DNA of 64,000 nucleotides from the NCBI GenBank assembly GCA_043750535.1, contig JAYVBJ010000043.1:104674-168673 (forward strand), given 5' to 3'. Position 1 is the stretch's first letter. Each line of letters begins with the position of its first letter. The notes beneath the pieces were generated by a model. That model was not told where the DNA came from. It saw only the letters and a list, made by a program, of their open reading frames with translations, and did no database searches. Both the position numbers and the translations under genes were made by a program. Shown here piece after piece: positions 53,457-62,569 of the stretch. The DNA comes from Sphingomonadales bacterium (lineage in GTDB: Bacteria; Pseudomonadota; Alphaproteobacteria; Sphingomonadales; Sphingomonadaceae).

Positions 53457-55454
53457 GTGGCTGAAACGCGGTCTTTGGCTTCGCTTGCTTTGCTGTTGAC
53501 TGCGATCGCAGGGCTCGTCTTGCTATCGCAGCAGCGTGAGCCTGATGTCTTGACCTATATGTTGCTGCTAGCAGGTTCGGCGGCGGCGATCACGGCTATG
53601 CTGTGGCGCGTTGAGAATATCAGCGCACCTGTGGTCTTCGTCGGGGCGCTGGTGGCCCATGTCATTACTCTGGTGGGTGCGCCTGCATTTGAAGATGATT
53701 ATTTCCGCTTCATCTGGGATGGTTGGCAAACGCTGCAAAAAGGCACACCTTACGGTGTTGCGCCCGATCAGTTTTTTGCCGATGATAGCGTATCCCCTGC
53801 GTTGAAATCGATTTTGGACGGCGTCAACAATCCTGAATATCCGACGATTTACGGGCCGGTTTTGCAAATCAGCTTTGCCGTGGCATTTGCACTTTTTGGG
53901 CCAAATCCGCTTGGTCTCCAACTGCTGTTTGCGGGCGTAAATCTGCTGTTGATTGGCGTGCTGTTGCGACGACACACACCCGCGAAGGTGGCACTTTATG
54001 CATGGAGCCCGCTCGTCATTGCAGAAACGAGTCTGCATTTGCATCCTGACGGGTTGCTGGGTGCGGCGCTGTTTGTAGCGATCCTGGCAGGTCAAAAGCG
54101 GCCCATATTAGCGGGCCTATTTTTCGGGCTGGCCGCTGGCATCAAGCTTGTGGCTCTGGCGGCGTGGCCGTTGCTGCTGCGTTTGCGTCTGCGGGCGCTT
54201 GTGACTGCGATTGCGTCGCTTGGCGGCCTTTATCTGCTGTTTCTCGTTCAAGGCCAAGGTGCAGGTTTTGATTCAACGGCGACGTTTGCCAAGCTTTGGC
54301 ATTTCAATCCGCTGTTGTACGAACCGTTGTTTCAGCTATCTGGATGGCAATCAGGACGCATGCTTGCGTTGCTGATTGCCGGATTACTGGTGCTGTGGCT
54401 CCACGCCCGCAGTCGTTCGATCGACGATGTTCCGTTGGCGGCCATTTTTGGCATCATCTTGCTGTTCGCCCCAGCGGTAAACAGCTGGTATCTGCTGTGG
54501 CTGCTTCCCTTTGCGGTGGGCCGGACGCAGATTTGGCCCTTTGCCGCGACGATAGCATTGCCATTTTCTTATCTGACAGGGCTAAATCTGGGCGATCCGG
54601 AATTGGAGGCATTTGCCGTTCACCCGCTGGCGCGCATCGCAGAGGTAACGATCCTGTCGTTGGCCCTCATCCATGATTGGCGGACCAACCGCCGTGCAAA
54701 GCTGAACGGCGAGATTGCGCTTACATCACCGCTGGCGGCGCCCAAGATCGCGGTAATCATGCCCGCGTTGAACGAGGAAGCTGCAATCGGCGGCGTCATT
54801 ACGAGCATCCGCAAGGCACTGCCCGAAAACTTGAAGCAAGTGATTGTCGTCGATAATGGCTGCACCGACGACACTGCTGCGGTCGCAGTGGCTAACGGCG
54901 CGATGGTCGTTACCGAAGCCCAGCGGGGCTACGGCGCTGCCTGCCTGACTGGCATTGACTGGCTCGATAAGGATATCGACATTGTCCTGTTTCTTGACAG
55001 CGACGGTTCCGATGTCGTGGCGGATGCGCCAAAGATCATAGCACCGATCACTGCAGGCAAAGCCGATCTTGTCATTGGCTCGCGTTCGCTGGGTGAAATG
55101 GAACGCGGCGCGATGACCGTGCCCCAGCGATATGGCAATTGGCTCGCGCCGCTGTTGGTTCGGCTGATTTGGGGTGTGCGCTATACCGACCTTGGACCGT
55201 TCCGGGCGATCCGGCGAAGCAGCCTGCATGCGCTTATTATGCAGGACCGCGACTTTGGCTGGACCATCGAAATGCAGGTCCGCGCGGCGAAGCAAGGATT
55301 GCGGACATTGGAGATACCAACCGGCTATCGACGCCGCATCGGTATTTCGAAAATTTCAGGCACTATCGACGGCGTGGTTAAAGCTGGTGTCAAAATTCTG
55401 TATGTGATTGGCCGCGAAGCCTTTGGCGATTTTGATGCTGTTCGGCGATCATAG
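53457..55454 (+). CDS. Fusion of a polytopic GT-C (GT87/DUF2029-like) domain and a GT2 polyprenol-phosphate glycosyltransferase domain
   Basis: N-terminal 'EDDYFRFIWDG..NNPEYPTIYGP' plus many TMs; C-terminal 'PALNEE..VVDNGCTD..RGYGAAC..DSDGSD..TDLGPFRAI..GWTIEMQ'. Confidence 0.85.
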   Translation: MAETRSLASLALLLTAIAGLVLLSQQREPDVLTYMLLLAGSAAAITAMLWRVENISAPVVFVGALVAHVITLVGAPAFEDDYFRFIWDGWQTLQKGTPYGVAPDQFFADDSVSPALKSILDGVNNPEYPTIYGPVLQISFAVAFALFGPNPLGLQLLFAGVNLLLIGVLLRRHTPAKVALYAWSPLVIAETSLHLHPDGLLGAALFVAILAGQKRPILAGLFFGLAAGIKLVALAAWPLLLRLRLRALVTAIASLGGLYLLFLVQGQGAGFDSTATFAKLWHFNPLLYEPLFQLSGWQSGRMLALLIAGLLVLWLHARSRSIDDVPLAAIFGIILLFAPAVNSWYLLWLLPFAVGRTQIWPFAATIALPFSYLTGLNLGDPELEAFAVHPLARIAEVTILSLALIHDWRTNRRAKLNGEIALTSPLAAPKIAVIMPALNEEAAIGGVITSIRKALPENLKQVIVVDNGCTDDTAAVAVANGAMVVTEAQRGYGAACLTGIDWLDKDIDIVLFLDSDGSDVVADAPKIIAPITAGKADLVIGSRSLGEMERGAMTVPQRYGNWLAPLLVRLIWGVRYTDLGPFRAIRRSSLHALIMQDRDFGWTIEMQVRAAKQGLRTLEIPTGYRRRIGISKISGTIDGVVKAGVKILYVIGREAFGDFDAVRRS

Positions 55455-55549: not shown

Positions 55550-55780
55550 ATGAATAAAATCTTGATTGCCGCAGCGATCATCACCCTTGCTTTCCTGCTC
55601 TACCGCTTTGGCCTGGCCATGCGGCATGGGCTGGGTCTCAACAAAATTTTGGGCACCGTTCACGCCTACCCCACGATGATAGAGGCAAATAAATTTGCCG
55701 CTGGTAAATGGAAAAAGGCTAATGCTCCCGAATGGGCCTTCACATGGCTGGAAAAATTCCATAGCTGGCGGCAGGGATAA
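55550..55780 (+). CDS. Small hypothetical protein with an N-terminal TM
   Basis: Follows the promoter motif; stop abuts the RBS (taaggag) of the next gene. Confidence 0.55.
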   Translation: MNKILIAAAIITLAFLLYRFGLAMRHGLGLNKILGTVHAYPTMIEANKFAAGKWKKANAPEWAFTWLEKFHSWRQG

Positions 55781-55788
55781 GGAGAGAG

Positions 55789-56214
55789 ATGATGAAGGCA
55801 CTGTCATTGTTATTTTTACGGGTTTCAACGGGCCTTCTCTGCATGATCTGGGGACTGATCCGTATTGGCAAACCGTCGATCGGTGCCATGGTCAACGGCA
55901 AATATTATGGCGGCATCCTGTCGGGTGAGACAGCGCAATATATCTGGGGTGGATTTCTGTTAGTCGTCGGCCTGCTCACCATATTGGGCTTGTTGCGGCG
56001 CTATGCCTATCCGCTGCAGTCAGCGATCCTGTGTGTTGGCGCGCTTGGTATCTGGAAATACTTGCTTGATCCGCTGGGCCTGTGGTTGCTTGACGAAAAA
56101 AGCGCGCAGGTATTGTTCTTCCCGTCATTGGGCATGGCCGCTGCAACGCTTGTGCTGATTGCCTTCCGCGATGATGATCGCATCGCTCTTGATCGCAAAA
56201 TTGGCCGCCAATGA
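55789..56214 (+). CDS. DoxX-like membrane protein
   Basis: 'LLFLRVSTG..WG', 'VGLLTILGL.RR', about 4 TMs, 'IALDR'. Confidence 0.75.
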   Translation: MMKALSLLFLRVSTGLLCMIWGLIRIGKPSIGAMVNGKYYGGILSGETAQYIWGGFLLVVGLLTILGLLRRYAYPLQSAILCVGALGIWKYLLDPLGLWLLDEKSAQVLFFPSLGMAAATLVLIAFRDDDRIALDRKIGRQ

Positions 56215-56798
56215 CTGTAGTACCGCGACTTGTCCTGTTCGCGCGCTACCCGGTCGCGGGCGAATGCAAGACCCGTTTGATCCCGGCGTTGGGGGCTGAA
56301 GGTGCCGCATCACTGCACCGCAAACTCACCGCACGCACCATCTGTGTGCTGCGCGCGAGCGGTGCTCCCGTCACACTTGCTTATACTGGCGCGGTACAGG
56401 ATGATTTTGAGCGCTGGCTGGGTAGCGACATCGCGTTGGTTGAGCAGGTGGACGGCGACCTAACCGACAAGTTACTCGCATGCCTCAACCCAGCACCCTT
56501 GATATTTTTCGGTGCTGACACACCTGATCTTGGCGCAAGTCATGTCGCGGCGGCAATAGCAGCCCTGCAGAAGCATGAAGTCGTGATTGGCCCGGCGGAA
56601 GATGGCGGCTATTATCTGATCGGAATGCGCAATGCCTTACCCCAATTGTTTGTCGACATGCCGTGGAGCACAGAACAGGTGCTGCCCGAAACACTGGCGC
56701 GGCTGGCGCGGCTTGGGATCACGCCTTTGCTTCTAGAAACATTATCCGATTGCGACCGGCCCGATGACCTTGCCCGCTGGCCAGACCTTTCACCATGA
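56211..56798 (+). CDS. TIGR04282/DUF2064 family (CofC-like) transferase
   Basis: FARYPVAGECKTRL, QVDGDL, GADTPDL, VIGPAEDGGYYLIG, PWST, DCDRPDDL. Confidence 0.9.
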   Translation: MTVVPRLVLFARYPVAGECKTRLIPALGAEGAASLHRKLTARTICVLRASGAPVTLAYTGAVQDDFERWLGSDIALVEQVDGDLTDKLLACLNPAPLIFFGADTPDLGASHVAAAIAALQKHEVVIGPAEDGGYYLIGMRNALPQLFVDMPWSTEQVLPETLARLARLGITPLLLETLSDCDRPDDLARWPDLSP

Positions 56799-57523
56799 TC
56801 CGTGTTACCATCCTCATCCCAACATATAATGAAGAAAAAGCGCTGCCCGAAACGCTGGCGTCGCTTGCCCGCCTCTCTCCTCCACCCAATGAAATCTTGT
56901 TGGTCGACGGCGGGAGTGAGGATCAAACGCAGGAAATTGCGCGCGCCGCAGGGATAAAAACTATCGAAGCCCCGCGCAAAGGCAGAGGTACGCAGATCAA
57001 TCATGGCGTTCAATCGGCCACAGGCGATGTCATCTGCGTGCTGCACGCAGACTCGATATTACCCGAAGATGCCGTTGCGGTGATCCGCGCCACCATGTCA
57101 GACACGCGGATCGCACTTGCAAGCTTTACGCCGCGCCTTGCCGGACCGAGCGGAACCCGGTGGGGCTCGACATTCCACAACTGGATCAAGACATGGTATG
57201 CCCCTTTGCTCACCCGGCCACATTTGTTTTTTGGCGGAGTGCGGCTGCTGTTCGGTGATCATGCTATGTTTTTCCGGCGCGAACATTTCCTTGCCGTTGA
57301 TGGCTGTGATGAGCGTCTCGTCGTCATGGAAGAGGCTGACCTGTGCATCAAATTCGCGCGCTTTGGCCGAACAAAAATGGTGCCGCGCTGGGTTTGGACA
57401 TCGGACCGGCGGATCACCGAATGGGGCCGATGGCGGGCGAATTGGATTTATTTCAAGGTTGGAATGATGTGGGCCCTTGGCGCACGTGCACGGTTGGCGG
57501 AACATTATCCGGATGTGCGGTGA
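56795..57523 (+). CDS. TIGR04283-like GT2 glycosyltransferase
   Basis: IPTYNEE, VDGGSED, GRGTQIN.G, LHADS, FGDHAMF, MEE, TSDRR. Confidence 0.88.
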   Translation: MIRVTILIPTYNEEKALPETLASLARLSPPPNEILLVDGGSEDQTQEIARAAGIKTIEAPRKGRGTQINHGVQSATGDVICVLHADSILPEDAVAVIRATMSDTRIALASFTPRLAGPSGTRWGSTFHNWIKTWYAPLLTRPHLFFGGVRLLFGDHAMFFRREHFLAVDGCDERLVVMEEADLCIKFARFGRTKMVPRWVWTSDRRITEWGRWRANWIYFKVGMMWALGARARLAEHYPDVR

Positions 57524-57535
57524 TTGCGGTTTACT

Positions 57536-58582
57536 TCAACAGCAGGACGCCGCCTGCGCCTCTTGCGACACATCATAGGGTAGCCCGCCGCCACATCCGG
57601 TGAACACGCCGAAATGGCGGCTGAAATCGCCGATGAAGTCGAAATGCGAGGCAAAGCGAGTGCCAGCCAGCATTTTCCAGCTGTTGCCGCATACCGGGAA
57701 CGCCCGGCCTGCTTCTATCATATGATATTTATCAAGGGTGAAGACGCGTTCTTCGCCGATGATGTCACCGCGATAGACGACGGCCTGGCCATAATCTTCG
57801 CATTCCGGCTCCAGCCCGGCCAGCTTGAACAATCGAGAGGTGGCAGAGAAGAAGTGGATACCATCGAGCTTATCGGCAATTTCAGTATCACCAATGCCCA
57901 GCGGGCGGTCTTTCACAAGTCGCGGATCATCGAAACCGGCGCGCTTGGCATGGGCGAGAAAATCACCCCAATAGAGCGCACCCGACAGGCACTCGCCATG
58001 TAGCACCGGATCGGCAAGCAAATGCACAGGCACGCGGCGATCAGAATAGACGTCGGAAAAATACATCTCGCCGCCCGGTTTAAGCAGGCGATGCGCAGCC
58101 TCAAACACTGCGGCCTTATCGGCGACCAGATTAATCACACAGTTGGAGACGATCACGTCAAAGCTTTCCGGTTCCAGATCCAGGCTGCCCAGTTGCTCAA
58201 CATCGCCCTCAATGAAACGCACATTGCTCTTGGCATAGCCAAAACGATCCCGGTGCCAGTCCAGATGAGCGTTCGCAACGGCCAGCTGTTCCGGGGTGGT
58301 GTCTACGCCGACAACCTCACCGCTCTCTCCCACCAATTGTGCAAGGAGATAGGCATCCTGCCCCGACCCTGAACCTAGATCGAGAATACGCGCCCCTTCT
58401 ATGGCTGATGGAGCCACAAGCCCACACCCATAATAGCGCGCCTTCACCTCTTCATGCACATTGGATAGCGCACGGCGGACATACGGCGGCGGCGCATCGG
58501 CCATGGTGCAGGCATCGGTGAGCAGGTCGCCAGAGCCTTGCAACACTTCACCATAATAGTTGCGGCTGTTTTCGATGTTCAT
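57536..58582 (-). CDS. arsM: As(III) S-adenosylmethionine methyltransferase (ArsM/AS3MT-like)
   Basis: YYGEVL..DL.TDAC, YYGCG, LDLGSGSG, SNCVINL, GECLSGALYW, C-terminal CC. Confidence 0.88.
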   Translation of the reverse strand: MNIENSRNYYGEVLQGSGDLLTDACTMADAPPPYVRRALSNVHEEVKARYYGCGLVAPSAIEGARILDLGSGSGQDAYLLAQLVGESGEVVGVDTTPEQLAVANAHLDWHRDRFGYAKSNVRFIEGDVEQLGSLDLEPESFDVIVSNCVINLVADKAAVFEAAHRLLKPGGEMYFSDVYSDRRVPVHLLADPVLHGECLSGALYWGDFLAHAKRAGFDDPRLVKDRPLGIGDTEIADKLDGIHFFSATSRLFKLAGLEPECEDYGQAVVYRGDIIGEERVFTLDKYHMIEAGRAFPVCGNSWKMLAGTRFASHFDFIGDFSRHFGVFTGCGGGLPYDVSQEAQAASCC

Positions 58583-58673: not shown

Positions 58674-58699
58674 GTAACCTTTGAACGTCGGAGATCGAA
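58674..58699 (+). promoter_or_regulatory. ECF sigma promoter motif for the radical SAM gene
   Basis: GTAACC-N16-CGAA. Confidence 0.8.
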
Positions 58700-58707
58700 A
58701 CAGAGGC

Positions 58708-59670
58708 ATGAACCAGCCCATATCTCCATTCGCGCTTCAAGGCGCACATCCATTGTCACCGCAAAAATTTTCTGACCCGATTATGACGGCAAAAGGTGAG
58801 CTGCGGGCGCATGTCACAATGACTGGCCTGACTACCCTGTGGTTCAACACCGGCACCTTGTGCAATCTTTCCTGCAAAAGCTGTTACATCGAAAGCTCGC
58901 CGACCAACGACGCGCTTGTCTATATTAGCTTGGATGAGGTTCGCTGTTATCTTGATGAGATTGCCCGCGACGGACTAGCCACGCATGAGATAGCCTTTAC
59001 GGGCGGCGAACCGTTCATGAACCGGGAGATGATACCGATCATCCAGCTGTGCCTGGACCGTGGCTTTGATGTGCTCGTGCTATCGAACGCCATGCGCCCG
59101 ATGCAGCGGTTTGAACGCGAATTGCTGGCGCTGCATGGCCGCGAGCGTTTGACGATCCGCGTTAGCCTCGATCATCACACGCAAGAAGTGCATGAGGCGG
59201 AGCGCGGGCCAGATAGCTGGGACAAAGCGATGGGCGGCCTAGTCTGGCTCGGCAACAACGGCTTTGCCATTGCCGTCGCCGGACGCCATTTGGGTAATGA
59301 GGCAGATGCGGCGGCGCGAGACGGCTACGCCCAGCTGTTTGCCGACAATGGCCTGTCAATCAATGCGAATGATCCGACCCAGCTCGTGCTGTTCCCGGAA
59401 ATAGACGAAAACGCCGACATTGCGGAAATCTCCACCGGCTGCTGGGATATATTGAACATCAATCCTGCGAGCATGATGTGTGCGTCCAGCCGGATGGTGG
59501 TAAAGCGCAAGGACGAAAATGCCCCGCGCGTCGCGGCATGCACCTTGCTGCCCTATCAGGCGGATTTTGATATGGGCGCTACACTTGCCGAGGCTAGCCG
59601 CGAGGTGCGGCTCAACCACCCGCACTGTGCTCGCTTCTGCGTGCTTGGCGGGGCAAGCTGTTCGGCGTGA
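58708..59670 (+). CDS. Radical SAM protein with Cys-rich C-terminus (ArsS-like)
   Basis: CNLSCKSC, FTGGEPF, MMCASSR, HPHCARFCVLGGASC; ATG 58708 lies downstream of the promoter motif. Confidence 0.85.
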   Translation: MNQPISPFALQGAHPLSPQKFSDPIMTAKGELRAHVTMTGLTTLWFNTGTLCNLSCKSCYIESSPTNDALVYISLDEVRCYLDEIARDGLATHEIAFTGGEPFMNREMIPIIQLCLDRGFDVLVLSNAMRPMQRFERELLALHGRERLTIRVSLDHHTQEVHEAERGPDSWDKAMGGLVWLGNNGFAIAVAGRHLGNEADAAARDGYAQLFADNGLSINANDPTQLVLFPEIDENADIAEISTGCWDILNINPASMMCASSRMVVKRKDENAPRVAACTLLPYQADFDMGATLAEASREVRLNHPHCARFCVLGGASCSA

Positions 59671-59730: not shown

Positions 59731-60720
59731 ATGCTGATCCTGCTTATCGCGACTGCCTTTTTTCTTTCCTTCAGCAATGGAGCTAACGACAATTTTAAGG
59801 GATTTGCGACCAGCTGGGGTTCCGGCTCACTCAGTTACCGGACCGCGTTAATCCTCTCCAATGTGGCGACTTTGGCAGGCGGTGTCGCCTCGATCATTAT
59901 TGCCGATGGCCTGGTTAAACAATTTTCAGGGCGCGGGTTGGTTGATGATGCTATTGTTGCCTCGACAGGCTTTAGTTTTGCCGCCGCCGCCGGGGCAGGC
60001 ATCACGGTGATGCTGGCGACACGTCTGGGCTTTCCCATTTCGACCACGCACGCACTGGTCGGCGGCTTGACCGGAGCAGGGCTGGCAAGCGGCAGCGCGC
60101 TGCAATGGGGGGCGCTCGGCAGTGGCTTCATGCTACCACTGTTAATCAGCCCACTCCTCTCGGCAACGCTTGCCTTTGCCATTTATGGCGGCGCAAGATT
60201 GCTGCAACGCCGATGGGTTCCAGTTTATGGAGGCGACTACCTCGTGCCTGAGAACGATGTCGAAAGCGGAAATCGAACGCTAACAAGCACGCATATCCTG
60301 TCGGCGGTGGCGATCTGTTTTGCCCGTGCGGTGAATGATACGCCAAAGCTTGCGGCATTGATGCTGGGCGCTGGAATATTATCATCCGTCAGCAGTGCCC
60401 TTGCCGTAACGGCTGCGATGATTGCAGGCGGCTGGCTTTTGTCGCGGCGTGTGGCGGAAACGATGAGCCTCAAAATCTCCACTCTCTCGGCGGAACAGGG
60501 CACTACCGCCAATCTTGTAACCGCAGGCTTGGTCCTTGCCGCAAGCCGGTTTAGCTTGCCGGTTTCCACAACCCATGTTTCGGTCGGCTCCATCATCGGC
60601 AGCGGAGCGGCGGCACGCACGCTTGATCTATCGACCGTCCGCAATGTCCTTCTGTCCTGGGTGGTTACATTGCCCTTATCAGCGATGCTCGCCGCCATCA
60701 TAAGATGGGTTATCCTCTAA
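59731..60720 (+). CDS. PiT family inorganic phosphate/anion transporter
   Basis: NGAND, GFPISTTHALVG, VNDTPK, LPVSTTHVSVGSIIG, SWVVTLP. Confidence 0.9.
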   Translation: MLILLIATAFFLSFSNGANDNFKGFATSWGSGSLSYRTALILSNVATLAGGVASIIIADGLVKQFSGRGLVDDAIVASTGFSFAAAAGAGITVMLATRLGFPISTTHALVGGLTGAGLASGSALQWGALGSGFMLPLLISPLLSATLAFAIYGGARLLQRRWVPVYGGDYLVPENDVESGNRTLTSTHILSAVAICFARAVNDTPKLAALMLGAGILSSVSSALAVTAAMIAGGWLLSRRVAETMSLKISTLSAEQGTTANLVTAGLVLAASRFSLPVSTTHVSVGSIIGSGAAARTLDLSTVRNVLLSWVVTLPLSAMLAAIIRWVIL

Positions 60721-61580
60721 AGGACGCGCCCGGCGACAGCATCAAGCCTTCCCATTAACTGCGGATCGCGTTTCGCCGGATCTGTAATCAAGGCAAAATC
60801 AAGGGCAGTGTCGATAGGGCTGGCGGCGCGTTGCAAGGGCAGCGATGCCGCCAAATGGGCAATCAGATCGCGGCCCTTTTCAGCATTGGCCGCCAATTGT
60901 GCGATGATCGCCTCGACCTCAACCGGCGCCTCATTCTCGCGCCAACAATCATAATCGGTGACCATACCGACCAGCGCATAAGGCAGCTCAGCCTCACGAG
61001 CGAGCTTTGCCTCGGGCATTGCCGTCATGCCGATGACATGTGCTCCCCATGCACGGTACATATGGCTTTCCGCACGGCTCGAAAACTGCGGCCCTTCCAT
61101 CGCCAGATAGGTACCCCCGCGATGAACATTTGCACCCGCCTTTTCAGCAGCGGTTGCGACATATTCTGACAGCCGCGGACAAACGGGATCGGCCATCGAA
61201 ACATGCGCGACCAGGCCATCACCAAAAAAGCTCTTTTCCCTTGCAAAGGTGCAGTCAATAAATTGATCGACGACGACAAAATCACCCGGAGCCATGTCTT
61301 CGGCAAGCGAGCCGATGGCCGAGATGGACACAATGTCGGTCACGCCCAACCGTTTCATCGCGTCAATGTTTGCACGGAAATTGAGCTGGCTCGGCCCCAA
61401 CACATGCCCCCGTCCATGGCGTGGCAGAAAGACGCATTCAACGCCGGAAACAGTTCCAGTTAACACCGCGTCGGATGGCGCGCCCCATGGAGTGGTCACT
61501 TCGACCCATTGCGGGTTTTCAAGCGCGTCGAGCTGATAAAGTCCCGAGCCGCCAATTATGCCGATTTTCCATTGTGCCAT
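60717..61580 (-). CDS. mtnP: S-methyl-5'-thioadenosine phosphorylase family
   Basis: GIIGGSGLY, TPWGAPS, PRHGRGH, EGPQFSSRAES, GMT, VTDYDCW. Confidence 0.92.
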   Translation of the reverse strand: MAQWKIGIIGGSGLYQLDALENPQWVEVTTPWGAPSDAVLTGTVSGVECVFLPRHGRGHVLGPSQLNFRANIDAMKRLGVTDIVSISAIGSLAEDMAPGDFVVVDQFIDCTFAREKSFFGDGLVAHVSMADPVCPRLSEYVATAAEKAGANVHRGGTYLAMEGPQFSSRAESHMYRAWGAHVIGMTAMPEAKLAREAELPYALVGMVTDYDCWRENEAPVEVEAIIAQLAANAEKGRDLIAHLAASLPLQRAASPIDTALDFALITDPAKRDPQLMGRLDAVAGRVL

Positions 61581-61590
61581 GCCTGATCCT

Positions 61591-61616
61591 TTCGAAACGC
61601 CGCGCCGACCGGTTAC
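61591..61616 (-). promoter_or_regulatory. ECF sigma promoter motif for the MTA phosphorylase
   Basis: Minus strand GTAACC-N16-CGAA, ending 10 nt before the ATG. Confidence 0.8.
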
Positions 61617-61648: not shown

Positions 61649-61674
61649 GTAACTTTTAACTTCCTCCAATCGAA
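61649..61674 (+). promoter_or_regulatory. ECF sigma promoter motif for the DUF547 operon
   Basis: GTAACT-N16-CGAA. Confidence 0.78.
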
Positions 61675-61732: not shown

Positions 61733-62569
61733 ATGAAATATTCCAACGTCCATTCCAGCAACCGACACCTTGGGCGTCGGACCCTGCTGGGTGCGATCTC
61801 TGCTGTGTTGGTGCTTGGGGCGTGCTCAAAACAGACAACGAACACCGACCAGAAATGGACACAGGCTGGGACTGCATCCGAGACGATCGATCATGGCGTC
61901 TGGGATCAAATATTATCCAAATATGTAAAGGTCGCCGAAGATGGCGTGAACCGCGTTGATTATGCCGCGCTGAAAAAGGACGATGCTGCGGCGCTGACGC
62001 GCTACCTGGCCGCGTTGCAAGCGGTTGAGATCGAAAAATATCCGAAGAACGAACAGTTCGCATTTTGGGTCAACCTCTACAACGCTGCGACAGTCGACGT
62101 GATCCTAAAGAACTATCCGTTGAAATCGATCAGGGACATCGGCTTGCTTGGCCAAGGCCCGTGGAAAGCCAAAGCCGTGAAAGTCAGCGGCACGGATTTA
62201 TCGCTCGACGATATCGAACACGGCATATTGCGCCCTATCTGGAAGGATGTGCGCATCCATTATGCCGTAAACTGCGCATCCATTGGCTGCCCGAACCTCG
62301 CGCCCAAAGCCTATACAGCTGAAACGCTGAACGCGATGCTGGACGAAGCAGCGCAGTCTTACATCAACCATCCCCGCGGCTTTGCCCGGGTTGACGGCGC
62401 GCTCGTCGCGTCCAGCATTTTCGACTGGTACGTCGATGATTGGGGCGATCAGGCCGCTGTCCTTGAACATGCCCGCAAATATGCGTCGGAAAAGACCAAG
62501 GCCGTCCTGGGTGCCACCACCCAAATCGACAGCCATGATTATGACTGGTCACTCAACGACGCAGAGTGA
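61733..62569 (+). CDS. DUF547 domain lipoprotein (twin-arginine-like signal)
   Basis: RRTLL...LGAC signal; AFWVNLYNA, SLDDIEH.ILR, RIHYAVNCASIGCP, SSIFDWY, YDWSLN. Confidence 0.9.
   Translation: MKYSNVHSSNRHLGRRTLLGAISAVLVLGACSKQTTNTDQKWTQAGTASETIDHGVWDQILSKYVKVAEDGVNRVDYAALKKDDAAALTRYLAALQAVEIEKYPKNEQFAFWVNLYNAATVDVILKNYPLKSIRDIGLLGQGPWKAKAVKVSGTDLSLDDIEHGILRPIWKDVRIHYAVNCASIGCPNLAPKAYTAETLNAMLDEAAQSYINHPRGFARVDGALVASSIFDWYVDDWGDQAAVLEHARKYASEKTKAVLGATTQIDSHDYDWSLNDAE

Follow-up and report, generated by a model that had tools for sequence, protein, structure and literature searches.

The window, that is, the whole stretch of 64,000 nucleotides that was analysed, contains a gene for an MTA phosphorylase (MtnP/MTAP) of 287 amino acids on the reverse strand (60717..61580, -), the product of which begins with MAQWKIGIIGG. 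The protein exceeds the curated cut-offs of the equivalog models NF006492 (458.4 bits versus 437) and TIGR01694 (306 bits versus 274.85), and is a distant match to the HpnG model TIGR03468 (E = 6.6e-6). In the alignment with human MTAP (PDB 1CB0; E = 3.5e-70), the residues of the active site are conserved. In the human enzyme, we take the phosphate site to consist of T18, R60, H61, T93 and A94, for which the equivalents are S12, R54, H55, S87 and A88. The F, S, M, T, D and D of the base site (presumably F177, S178, D220 and D222) and of the ribose site (presumably M196 and T197) are identical in the two proteins. At the 5' pocket, which is assumed to be formed by H65, H137, V233, V236 and L237 in human MTAP, H59 and the counterparts of H137 and V233 are kept, while V236 and L237 are both replaced by isoleucine. 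Compared with known MtnP/MTAP enzymes (1CB0 and the metagenomic RsfP, PDB 4GLF), the residues for phosphate, ribose, adenine and the 5' pocket are either unchanged or show conservative replacements; the length and the trimeric-family fold are predicted to be those of this family. We also searched the clade of island MTAPs for substitutions that could mark a change of substrate. Nine clade-specific positions were identified, none of them at a known active-site residue, and nothing thus points to a new substrate; judged from the alignments, the enzyme is catalytically ordinary and does not look adapted to an arsenical. Many 5' groups are tolerated by MTAPs, which weakens the canonical pocket as an objection to a new substrate.

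The MTAP gene is located inside the island and is encoded on the strand opposite to its two neighbours, as originally described. A gene for a PHO4/PiT-family anion transporter (59731..60720, +; PF01384, E = 2e-56) is convergent with MTAP, with overlapping stop codons; it is a variable member of the cluster, found between the radical SAM and MTAP genes in G000, G072 and G109 only. On the other side, a gene for a DUF547 protein (61733..62569, +; PF04784, E = 1e-27) is divergent from MTAP and recurs in the genus, where 8 of the remaining 9 cluster loci have it. The transporter gene is preceded by a gene for a radical SAM enzyme (58708..59670, +; PF04055) that belongs to an unnamed family. This enzyme is not an ArsS, since the ArsS model TIGR04167, with a cut-off of 300 bits, gives only 58.8 bits and matches the N-terminal half alone. 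No other ArsS was found in the genome, and no relative of the radical SAM protein was found in the PDB.

The next gene codes for ArsM, an arsenite S-adenosylmethionine methyltransferase (57536..58582, -), with full-length similarity to PDB 5EVJ (E = 4.4e-103) and 4FR0 (E = 3.9e-78). The motifs ACT, GCG, NCV and GECL, in which the four ArsM cysteines are found, align with those of 4FR0/4KW7, and the protein is a genuine ArsM; none of the NCBIfam models for ArsM reaches its cut-off. Further along are genes for a nucleotidyltransferase-like DUF2064/TIGR04282 protein (56211..56798, +; TIGR04282, 181.9 bits versus 134), which also matches CofC weakly and the "putative nucleotide-diphospho-sugar transferase" PDB 3CGX (E = 2e-17), and for a TIGR04283-like GT2 glycosyltransferase (56795..57523, +; PF00535, E = 2e-27), which scores slightly below the TIGR04283 cut-off (175.5 versus 182 bits). 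The cluster further includes a gene (53457..55454, +; PF00535, E = 3e-19) for a GT2 domain resembling polyprenyl-phosphate-sugar synthases that is fused to a polytopic GT-C-like domain. The more specific matches of the fusion protein are sub-threshold: the GT87 match (E = 6.6e-4) and the matches to NCBIfam models of the AglJ, DPM-synthase and PpgS types are all below the cut-offs. No NDP-sugar epimerase domain of the GalE3 type was identified among the island ORFs scanned.

The MTAP gene is preceded by an exact copy of the sigmaF-type ECF promoter motif GTAACC-N16-CGAA (61591..61616, -), in which the CGAA is separated from the ATG by exactly 10 nt, as originally noted. Back-to-back with it is a sigmaF-like promoter with the sequence GTAACT-N16-CGAA in front of the DUF547 operon (61649..61674, +), and a further sigmaF motif precedes the radical SAM gene (58674-58699, +), the ATG of which follows 8 nt on, at 58708. 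The window contains three exact copies of GTAACC-N16-CGAA versus 0.13 expected, a number that was reached in 0 of 100 shuffles. Genome-wide, ten copies have a spacer of 16 nt as compared to two to six copies for each of the spacers 14, 15, 17 and 18, and four of these ten fall within 11.4 kb around the island. The promoter had been described as an island promoter; the motif is indeed exact, but it is not private to the island, since it also precedes msrA (C16) and sigF-nrsF, the locus at C40 that encodes an ECF sigma factor and NrsF. The same sequence has been defined experimentally as the sigmaF-binding sequence in Caulobacter, where the regulon includes the periplasmic sulfoxide-reductase-type enzyme YedY (PMC3511200). 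The genome studied here thus shares with Caulobacter crescentus both an identical promoter sequence and a locus for DUF2063, an ECF sigma factor and NrsF, and the very short leader has a precedent in that regulon, in which the transcription start site of CC2907 is at -7. The published C. crescentus regulon includes DUF692, DUF2063, DoxX and YedY genes, and differs from the island in that genes for MTAP, ArsM or glycosyltransferases are not part of it.

On the MTAP strand, a sigma70-like site upstream of MTAP was looked for and not found. Transcription of the gene would depend on sigmaF. In the genus, only 5 of the 10 loci keep a sigmaF motif in front of MTAP; G072, G109, G101 and G022 have a variant of it, at a distance of 8-10 nt from the start codon. 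Between the ArsM and radical SAM genes, motifs of the sigmaF type point in both directions in four genomes (G000, G072, G109 and G101).

The original prediction had also stated that no other methionine-salvage gene is adjacent to MTAP. This holds for the whole island, in which no such gene was found, and MtnA (TIGR00512) was not found in any of the five genomes tested (G000, G022, G043, G011 and G014). Neither MtnN above the cut-off nor canonical SpeE or LuxI was identified in the cluster-bearing genus genomes tested, and sources of MTA in these genomes look scarce. Since none of MtnA, MtnN, SpeE and LuxI was found in the genomes tested, methionine salvage is not the context of this MTAP. A check for a second, housekeeping mtnP was also proposed, and none was found: the island gene is the sole MTAP, and codes for the only MTAP/MtnN/PNP-type enzyme detected in the genome, which is a MAG of 87.7% completeness.

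We examined the inheritance of MTAP in a sample of 101 species from the genus. MTAP was identified in 10 species and the radical SAM gene likewise in 10, with 9 in common, while 90 of the 101 species have neither gene. In all 10 genomes with MTAP, the gene is located 0-3 kb from the cluster (DUF2064/TIGR04282, GT2/TIGR04283, ArsM and radical SAM), and it is absent from all 91 genomes in which there is no DUF2064/GT2 cluster for it to adjoin. A phylogeny based on RpoB shows at least five gains or losses of MTAP (changes of state on the starred branches), and in phylogenetically independent pairs the presence of the radical SAM gene follows that of MTAP in 4-5 of 5 cases and never in the opposite direction. 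Nine of the 10 island MTAPs form a single clade (SH-aLRT 99), which answers the question of whether the island copies group together. The finding that, according to the original prediction, would have spoken against a role in the island, a sole and vertically inherited mtnP, does not describe this gene: it is sole, but it is gained and lost with the cluster rather than kept vertically as a housekeeping gene. Within one genus, the coming and going of MTAP together with the cluster provides an unusually clean natural experiment.

These results bear on the explanation that MTAP is a chance neighbour, an ordinary housekeeping mtnP which borders the island by accident and has no part in the cluster. 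Such a gene would be expected to have the typical sequence and active site seen here and to be the only copy in the genome, and most alphaproteobacterial MTAPs are indeed not linked to the cluster: of the 80 closest MTAPs that were retrieved from outside the genus, only L055 and L068 have any cluster gene nearby, and the other 78 have none. Against this stand the constant position of MTAP beside the cluster with at least five joint gains or losses, the missing downstream salvage enzyme and a sigmaF-type promoter of its own, like those of other island genes. We consider a chance association very improbable. Unlike an ordinary MtnP/MTAP gene, the island gene is an accessory gene of the genus that is passed on together with a biosynthetic cluster; its promoter is of the ECF sigmaF type, and no partner in methionine salvage was found in the genomes tested. 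Because of the linkage to the cluster genes and the absence of salvage enzymes, we read it as an anabolic enzyme of the cluster, which would probably convert a 5'-substituted adenosine derived from SAM and thereby supply a ribose-1-phosphate to the DUF2064 and GT2 proteins.

The relationship to the radical SAM gene allows for another role, in which MTAP would only remove 5'-deoxyadenosine (or MTA) that inhibits the radical SAM enzyme, with the ribose-1-phosphate as waste. 5'-Deoxyadenosine acts as an inhibitor of radical SAM enzymes and is cleaved by MTAPs; the two genes are convergent in all nine genus loci that hold both, despite rearrangements, and no other enzyme of the MTAP/MtnN/PNP type was detected in the genome. 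Moreover, an apt-linked nucleosidase-like gene is present in only 2 of the 10 MTAP-bearing species, as compared to 70 of the 91 other species in the genus (Fisher p = 6e-4 on raw counts), as if MTAP had replaced a housekeeping MTA/SAH nucleosidase. This contrast is lost on the RpoB tree, where the nucleosidase state is mostly the same within phylogenetically independent pairs, and it was for this reason dropped as evidence. About 20 species in the genus have neither enzyme and must still run their housekeeping radical SAM enzymes. In G106, the DUF2064, GT2 and MTAP genes have been kept although both ArsM and the radical SAM gene are gone, so that MTAP seems bound to the transferases and not to the radical SAM enzyme, and the association of MTAP with TIGR04282 persists in the absence of the radical SAM gene (see below). 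The reaction of the ArsS type, for which this has been established for ArsS only, consumes the adenosyl radical and releases no 5'-deoxyadenosine. A mere clearance function is therefore quite unlikely in our assessment.

To place the cluster in a broader context, we analysed 401 genomes of Alphaproteobacteria, for which all numbers are raw counts uncorrected for phylogeny or genome size. The radical SAM family was identified in 127 of these, and MTAP in 120 of the 127 as compared to 80 of the 274 genomes without the family. MTAP is also present in 25 of the 37 genomes (68%) with TIGR04282 only, versus about 54 of the 237 (23%) with neither. The set of radical SAM, DUF2064, GT2 and MTAP is thus found in about a third of the Alphaproteobacteria, mostly without ArsM. 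The expectation that ArsM accompanies the radical SAM family throughout the class was ruled out: ArsM is present in only 3 of 45 genomes with this family and adjoins it in 0 of 20 sampled loci, from which it follows that arsenic is not an inherent part of the core module. MTAP is independently embedded in the cluster in G360, G484, L055 and G054, and three loci (G106, G054 and L055) keep MTAP and DUF2064 without ArsM, of which G106 and G054 also have a TIGR04283-like GT2.

A module of this kind without ArsM resembles the methylthioxylose (MTX) locus of Mycobacterium tuberculosis. In 2017, Angala et al. reportedly described Rv0535 of this locus as an MTAP and Rv0540 as a DUF2064 protein. We take Rv0536 to be GalE3, and the MTAP of the locus to be an anabolic supplier of a ribose-1-phosphate derivative, with MTA itself as the substrate. 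The lipid-linked MTX donor is made by MtxS (Rv0539), and MTX is transferred by MtxT (Rv0541c) (PMC12088412, PMC8780516). Compared by enzyme class, both loci combine an MTAP with a DUF2064-type protein and a small GT2, and the GT-C transferase has a putative counterpart in the island, for which the match is sub-threshold. The island differs in that a radical SAM gene takes the place of the epimerase, ArsM has been added and the GT2 and GT-C-like domains are fused, and also in its Gram-negative alphaproteobacterial host and predicted sigmaF regulation.

By analogy, the island MTAP could act on MTA to yield 5-methylthioribose-1-phosphate, from which DUF2064, GT2 and the GT2/GT-C fusion would build a lipid-linked methylthio-pentose for the envelope, as in the capping of lipoarabinomannan in M. 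tuberculosis. The radical SAM enzyme would then replace the epimerase or tailor the sugar, and ArsM would be a co-regulated stress gene. The shared enzyme classes, the canonical MTAP pocket and the predominance of modules without ArsM across the class agree with this scheme, and YedY in the Caulobacter regulon and the sigmaF motif before msrA would suit an oxidisable thioether sugar. It is difficult to reconcile with the lack of a canonical spermidine synthase or AHL synthase as a source of MTA in the cluster-bearing genomes and of an epimerase in the island. The arrangement of ArsM also speaks against it, in that ArsM is divergent against the radical SAM gene in 8 of the 10 genus loci, with sigmaF-type motifs facing both ways in four. 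Finally, orf55550, DUF547 and TIGR04282/TIGR04283 are found together with true ArsS in other classes. Overall, we regard the methylthio-pentose scheme as unlikely.

The anabolic role in an arsenical version, with a substrate of the DDMAA type, is in our view quite possible, although we stop short of calling it probable. In this version, As(III) would first be methylated by ArsM, after which the radical SAM enzyme, acting in the stead of ArsS, would attach the methylated arsenic to the 5'-deoxyadenosyl moiety from SAM, yielding a DDMAA-type 5'-substituted 5'-deoxyadenosine. Phosphorolysis by MTAP would release adenine and an alpha-ribose-1-phosphate derivative, which may be activated by the DUF2064/TIGR04282 protein through its nucleotidyltransferase-like fold. 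In the last step, the sugar could be installed as a beta-riboside by the inverting GT2 (TIGR04283) together with the GT2/GT-C fusion, on an acceptor that probably belongs to the envelope. Both the substrate and the order of the steps are what we infer from the gene content. With the cyanobacterial ArsM-ArsS route (TIGR04167/TIGR04282/TIGR04283), the island shares a genuine ArsM, a TIGR04282 member and a TIGR04283-like GT2, and it has a radical SAM protein with a Cys-rich C-terminus in the position of ArsS, yet one that fails the ArsS model. The proposal of MTAP as a candidate for de-adenylation in arsenosugar synthesis is thus partly upheld, by its membership in the island, by ArsM and by one locus from another class (G613), in which MTAP and a true ArsS form a divergent pair next to ArsM, TIGR04282 and TIGR04283; it is weakened by the radical SAM enzyme not being ArsS, by the set occurring mostly without ArsM, by the match of this set to the MTX genes and by the canonical active site of MTAP. 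The expectation that MTAP is common beside true ArsS was not borne out, as this was seen in only 1 of 20 sampled true-ArsS loci.

A similar sequence of reactions is known from the hopanoid side chain, where the radical SAM enzyme HpnH adds a 5'-deoxyadenosyl group and HpnG, of the PNP/UDP family, removes the adenine to give a ribosyl derivative. The logic of adenosylation followed by removal of adenine would be the same in the island, although HpnG is a different phosphorylase subfamily with a lipid substrate and the HpnH/HpnG system lacks the continuation by DUF2064 and GT2. To our knowledge, no enzyme has been assigned to the removal of adenine from the adenosylated arsenical since the pathway for arsenosugar synthesis was proposed. 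The literature that we searched likewise assigns no enzyme to this step, contains no link between arsenosugars and MTA phosphorylase, and does not mention DUF2064, Rv0535 or Rv0540. The locus offers a concrete and easily expressed candidate for this step, the activity of which would be informative for both arsenic biogeochemistry and envelope glycobiology.

As a tentative and rather doubtful generalization, phosphorolysis by MTAP might be the common link of a widespread "adenosyl-to-glycosyl" pathway, in which 5'-substituted adenosines made by an adenosylating radical SAM enzyme would be converted by MTAP to alpha-ribose-1-phosphates, nucleotidylated by DUF2064 and attached by GT2 enzymes, as beta-ribosides, to lipids or the envelope. 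Two special cases of this pathway would be the arsenosugars and the methylthioxylose of mycobacteria, and in the genus the complete set with MTAP would move as a sigmaF-induced island for metalloid or oxidant stress. If so, the adenosylating enzymes would be ArsS in many Proteobacteria and the unnamed radical SAM family in about a third of the Alphaproteobacteria. The TIGR04282/TIGR04283 transferases, the unnamed radical SAM family and MTAP constitute a common alphaproteobacterial triad, mostly without ArsM, and current annotation may assign arsenic chemistry too broadly to pathways for 5-substituted pentoses. The named relatives of the island MTAP and radical SAM proteins are from Sphingomonas, Erythrobacter and Blastomonas.

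The island gene for methylthioadenosine phosphorylase (MTAP, mtnP) is an open reading frame of 287 amino acids on the reverse strand (window positions 60717-61580), the product of which passed the cut-offs of two curated equivalog models, NF006492 (458.4 bits, cut-off 437) and TIGR01694 (306 bits, cut-off 274.85). The closest solved structures are MTAPs (4GLF, E = 2.8e-80; human 1CB0, E = 3.5e-70). In an alignment to human 1CB0, the residues that bind phosphate, ribose and adenine and those that line the hydrophobic 5' pocket were either identical or conservatively replaced (T18S, T93S, V236I, L237I). Its neighbours are a gene for a PHO4/PiT transporter, in convergent orientation, and one for a DUF547 protein, in divergent orientation. 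A search for a second mtnP, as proposed in the original prediction, identified none, and MTAP is thus single in the Sphingomonadales MAG (G000; 2.40 Mb, 65 contigs, 87.7% completeness, 54.8% G+C), of which the window covers C43:104674-168673. The only other member of the PNP/UDP family in this genome is a 485-amino-acid protein, which we take to be an AMP nucleosidase and which was recovered in all five genomes tested.

Within the genus, MTAP is an accessory rather than a housekeeping gene. Among 101 evenly drawn species, 10 were found to have MTAP and 10 the radical SAM gene of the island, with both genes present in 9. A radical SAM gene without MTAP was found in G097, on a contig of 2.3 kb, while a reduced cluster in G106 (locus L049, G106:C6:1-20000) contained DUF547, TIGR04282, TIGR04283 and an intact MTAP gene, and lacked both ArsM and radical SAM. 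MTAP was located 0-3 kb from the cluster in all ten MTAP-bearing genomes; that the adjacency is due to chance is very improbable. At each of these loci with a radical SAM gene, this gene and MTAP were convergent; the PiT, DUF547 and GT-C/GT2 genes shift position.

In a species tree of 41 species based on the first 774 residues of RpoB, the MTAP-bearing species were scattered; at least five changes of MTAP state were forced by the starred branches, and seven were needed on the best tree. The radical SAM gene changed together with MTAP in four to five of five independent pairs and in the opposite way in none, five pairs being too few for a sign test to reach significance. G055 formed a very long branch, and its RpoB (L164, G055:C5:131373-133676) was 71% identical to the others, as compared to 84-89% for the others; despite a typical-looking cluster, the G055 bin may be chimeric or wrongly assigned. 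The expectation that the island copies form a clade of their own held for nine MTAPs (SH-aLRT 99, within a Sphingomonadales MTAP clade), but not for that of G054, which grouped with L055, another cluster-linked copy. The island clade has nine private substitutions, none of which is at a known active-site position. When the 80 closest MTAPs retrieved outside the species were inspected, 78 had no island genes in their vicinity. A sole, vertically inherited mtnP, raised earlier as an argument against a role in the island, is only half true, because MTAP is the sole copy but travels with the island, as seen from its distribution in the genus and the RpoB tree.

MtnA could not be identified in five genomes of the genus, two of which have completeness estimates of 100%, and in the genus genomes tested no MtnN scored above the cut-off and no canonical spermidine synthase was found. 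AHL synthase was not found either, which is a weak result in that the LuxI search matched no control genome. A role of MTAP in methionine salvage is therefore not supported, and few sources of MTA seem to be available. Of 100 other genomes of the genus, 72 have a nucleosidase-like gene linked to apt, as compared to only 2 of the 10 with MTAP, but the apparent displacement of the nucleosidase by MTAP (Fisher p = 6e-4, raw) was lost in the independent-pairs test. In G011, apt, the divergent MTA/SAH-nucleosidase-like gene and rpoB lie in a row (L133, G011:C1:2313000-2316500), and the nucleosidase-like protein scored 72.4 against TIGR01704 (cut-off 73.8); neither this gene nor apt had a tblastn match in G000. 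About twenty species of the genus have neither MTAP nor the nucleosidase-like gene, so clearance of 5'-deoxyadenosine by such an enzyme is not obligatory in the genus. It is unlikely that MTAP serves to clear a by-product.

The wider association was examined in 401 Alphaproteobacteria drawn evenly over families, including one unpublished genome (G356), of which 127 encode the island-type radical SAM protein, 160 TIGR04282 and 200 MTAP. As raw counts in which phylogeny and genome size are ignored, MTAP was present in 120 of the 127 genomes with the radical SAM gene and in 80 of the 274 without it, in 25 of the 37 with TIGR04282 and no radical SAM gene, and in about 54 of the 237 with neither. 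Four of the seven genomes with radical SAM and no MTAP are only 67-77% complete, and the remaining three, which are more complete, each encode some enzyme of the PNP/UDP family. MTAP was mostly found at other chromosomal sites, and inside the cluster in G360 and G484, from two further families.

MTAP is probably an anabolic member of the cluster, which would supply a 5-substituted ribose-1-phosphate for activation by the DUF2064 protein and transfer by the GT2 protein. The DUF2064 protein matches 3CGX, a structure deposited under the name putative nucleotide-diphospho-sugar transferase, and weakly CofC, which fits a predicted activation of a sugar phosphate. An α-ribose-1-phosphate donor and an inverting GT2 enzyme would yield β-ribosides, and natural arsenosugars have the β anomer, an outcome that would tie the cluster to arsenosugars. 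The closest mechanistic precedent is HpnH/HpnG of hopanoid synthesis, in which radical adenosylation is followed by removal of adenine by a PNP-family enzyme. In its enzyme classes, namely MTAP, DUF2064, a small GT2 and a second GT2 joined to a GT-C-like membrane domain, the island also corresponds to the methylthioxylose (MTX) capping locus of M. tuberculosis, where Rv0535 and Rv0540 are said, in work by Angala et al. from 2017, to be the MTAP and the DUF2064 protein. The main rival, that MTAP acts on MTA in a pathway of the MTX type, is in our view rather unlikely. In M. tuberculosis, MtxS (Rv0539) makes a decaprenyl-phospho-sugar, which is transferred by MtxT (Rv0541c) (PMC12088412; PMC8780516).

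In the ArsM-bearing island, the likeliest substrate of MTAP is the adenosylated arsenical (DDMAA) of the original prediction, a reading that we place just short of even. The presence of a genuine, full-length ArsM (57536-58582, reverse strand; PDB 5EVJ, E = 4.4e-103, with four cysteine-bearing motifs aligned), the gene for which diverges from the radical SAM gene at 8 of the 10 loci of the genus, argues for arsenic. It is argued against by the radical SAM protein (58708-59670), which belongs to an unnamed family and is not ArsS (58.8 bits against the TIGR04167 model, cut-off 300), and by the fact that ArsM is mostly missing where this family occurs: ArsM was identified in 3 of 45 alphaproteobacterial genomes with the island-type radical SAM gene and in none of 35 without it, and adjoined the gene in none of 20 sampled loci (L136-L155), so that the core module is independent of ArsM. 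The 127 alphaproteobacterial genomes hold the family at 50-63% identity, and no solved relative was found. A Cys/Met-metabolism PLP enzyme (PF01053) adjoins the radical SAM gene in three of the 20 loci, L136 (G122), L137 (G307) and L155 (G176), from genomes of two other families, which hints that the form without ArsM is tied to sulfur or methionine. True ArsS was identified in 110 of 241 genomes in a phylum sample and in none of the alphaproteobacteria drawn, which makes the two families look complementary. Recurrent genes at 20 ArsS loci, each from a different family, were TIGR04282/TIGR04283, DUF547 and a conserved small ORF; at one of them, G613, a divergent MTAP gene comes after ArsM, TIGR04282, TIGR04283, the small ORF and ArsS. 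The two radical SAM families thus fill the same genetic slot. The 76-amino-acid ORF of the island (55550-55780) has homologs with 57-62% identity beside true ArsS in other classes (L208, L209, L214), an unusually high conservation for so small a protein that lacks a family assignment.

The exact GTAACC-N16-CGAA motif predicted 10 nt ahead of the MTAP start codon was confirmed (61591-61616, reverse strand), and no sigma70-like site was found upstream of the gene on the same strand. The window contains three exact copies (0.13 expected), and G000 contains 10 copies with a spacer of 16, as compared to 2-6 at neighbouring spacers, 4 of the 10 being located within 11.4 kb around the island. The motif, described in the original prediction as an island promoter, is not private to the island: it is identical in every letter to the sigmaF-binding sequence of Caulobacter crescentus, where sigmaF mediates the response to chromate and cadmium via cysteines of its anti-sigma factor, NrsF, and where transcription of one target starts 7 nt ahead of the start codon (PMC3511200). 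It is also present outside the island in G000, in a canonical sigmaF locus (C40:19970-21313; L023 1498-3472) with, in this order, a DUF2063 gene, the exact motif, an ECF sigma factor (174 amino acids) and NrsF, which identifies the "island promoter" as a signal of the sigmaF regulon. Another exact copy precedes, by about 200 nt, a gene for a 249-amino-acid MsrA (PF01625; C16:4237-5190, L003), so that methionine-sulfoxide repair seems to be part of the regulon. The fourth exact copy of the region is found just beyond the window end (C43:168554-169014; L002 2555-3015), ahead of a 135-amino-acid ORF that has no Pfam match; next come a DPRP gene related to photolyases and two genes of the photolyase/cryptochrome type (L002 3487-7784). 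At orthologous genus loci, the motif or a one-mismatch variant was located 8-10 nt ahead of the MTAP start codon in G072, G109, G101 and G022, and was absent from this position in G055, G096, G043, G106 and G054; copies elsewhere in the locus were found in all nine long genus loci scanned. The radical SAM gene starts at 58708, 8 nt past a sigmaF motif (58674-58699), because of which the listed TTG start at 58681 is unusable. Leaders in the island thus seem, as a rule, to be very short.
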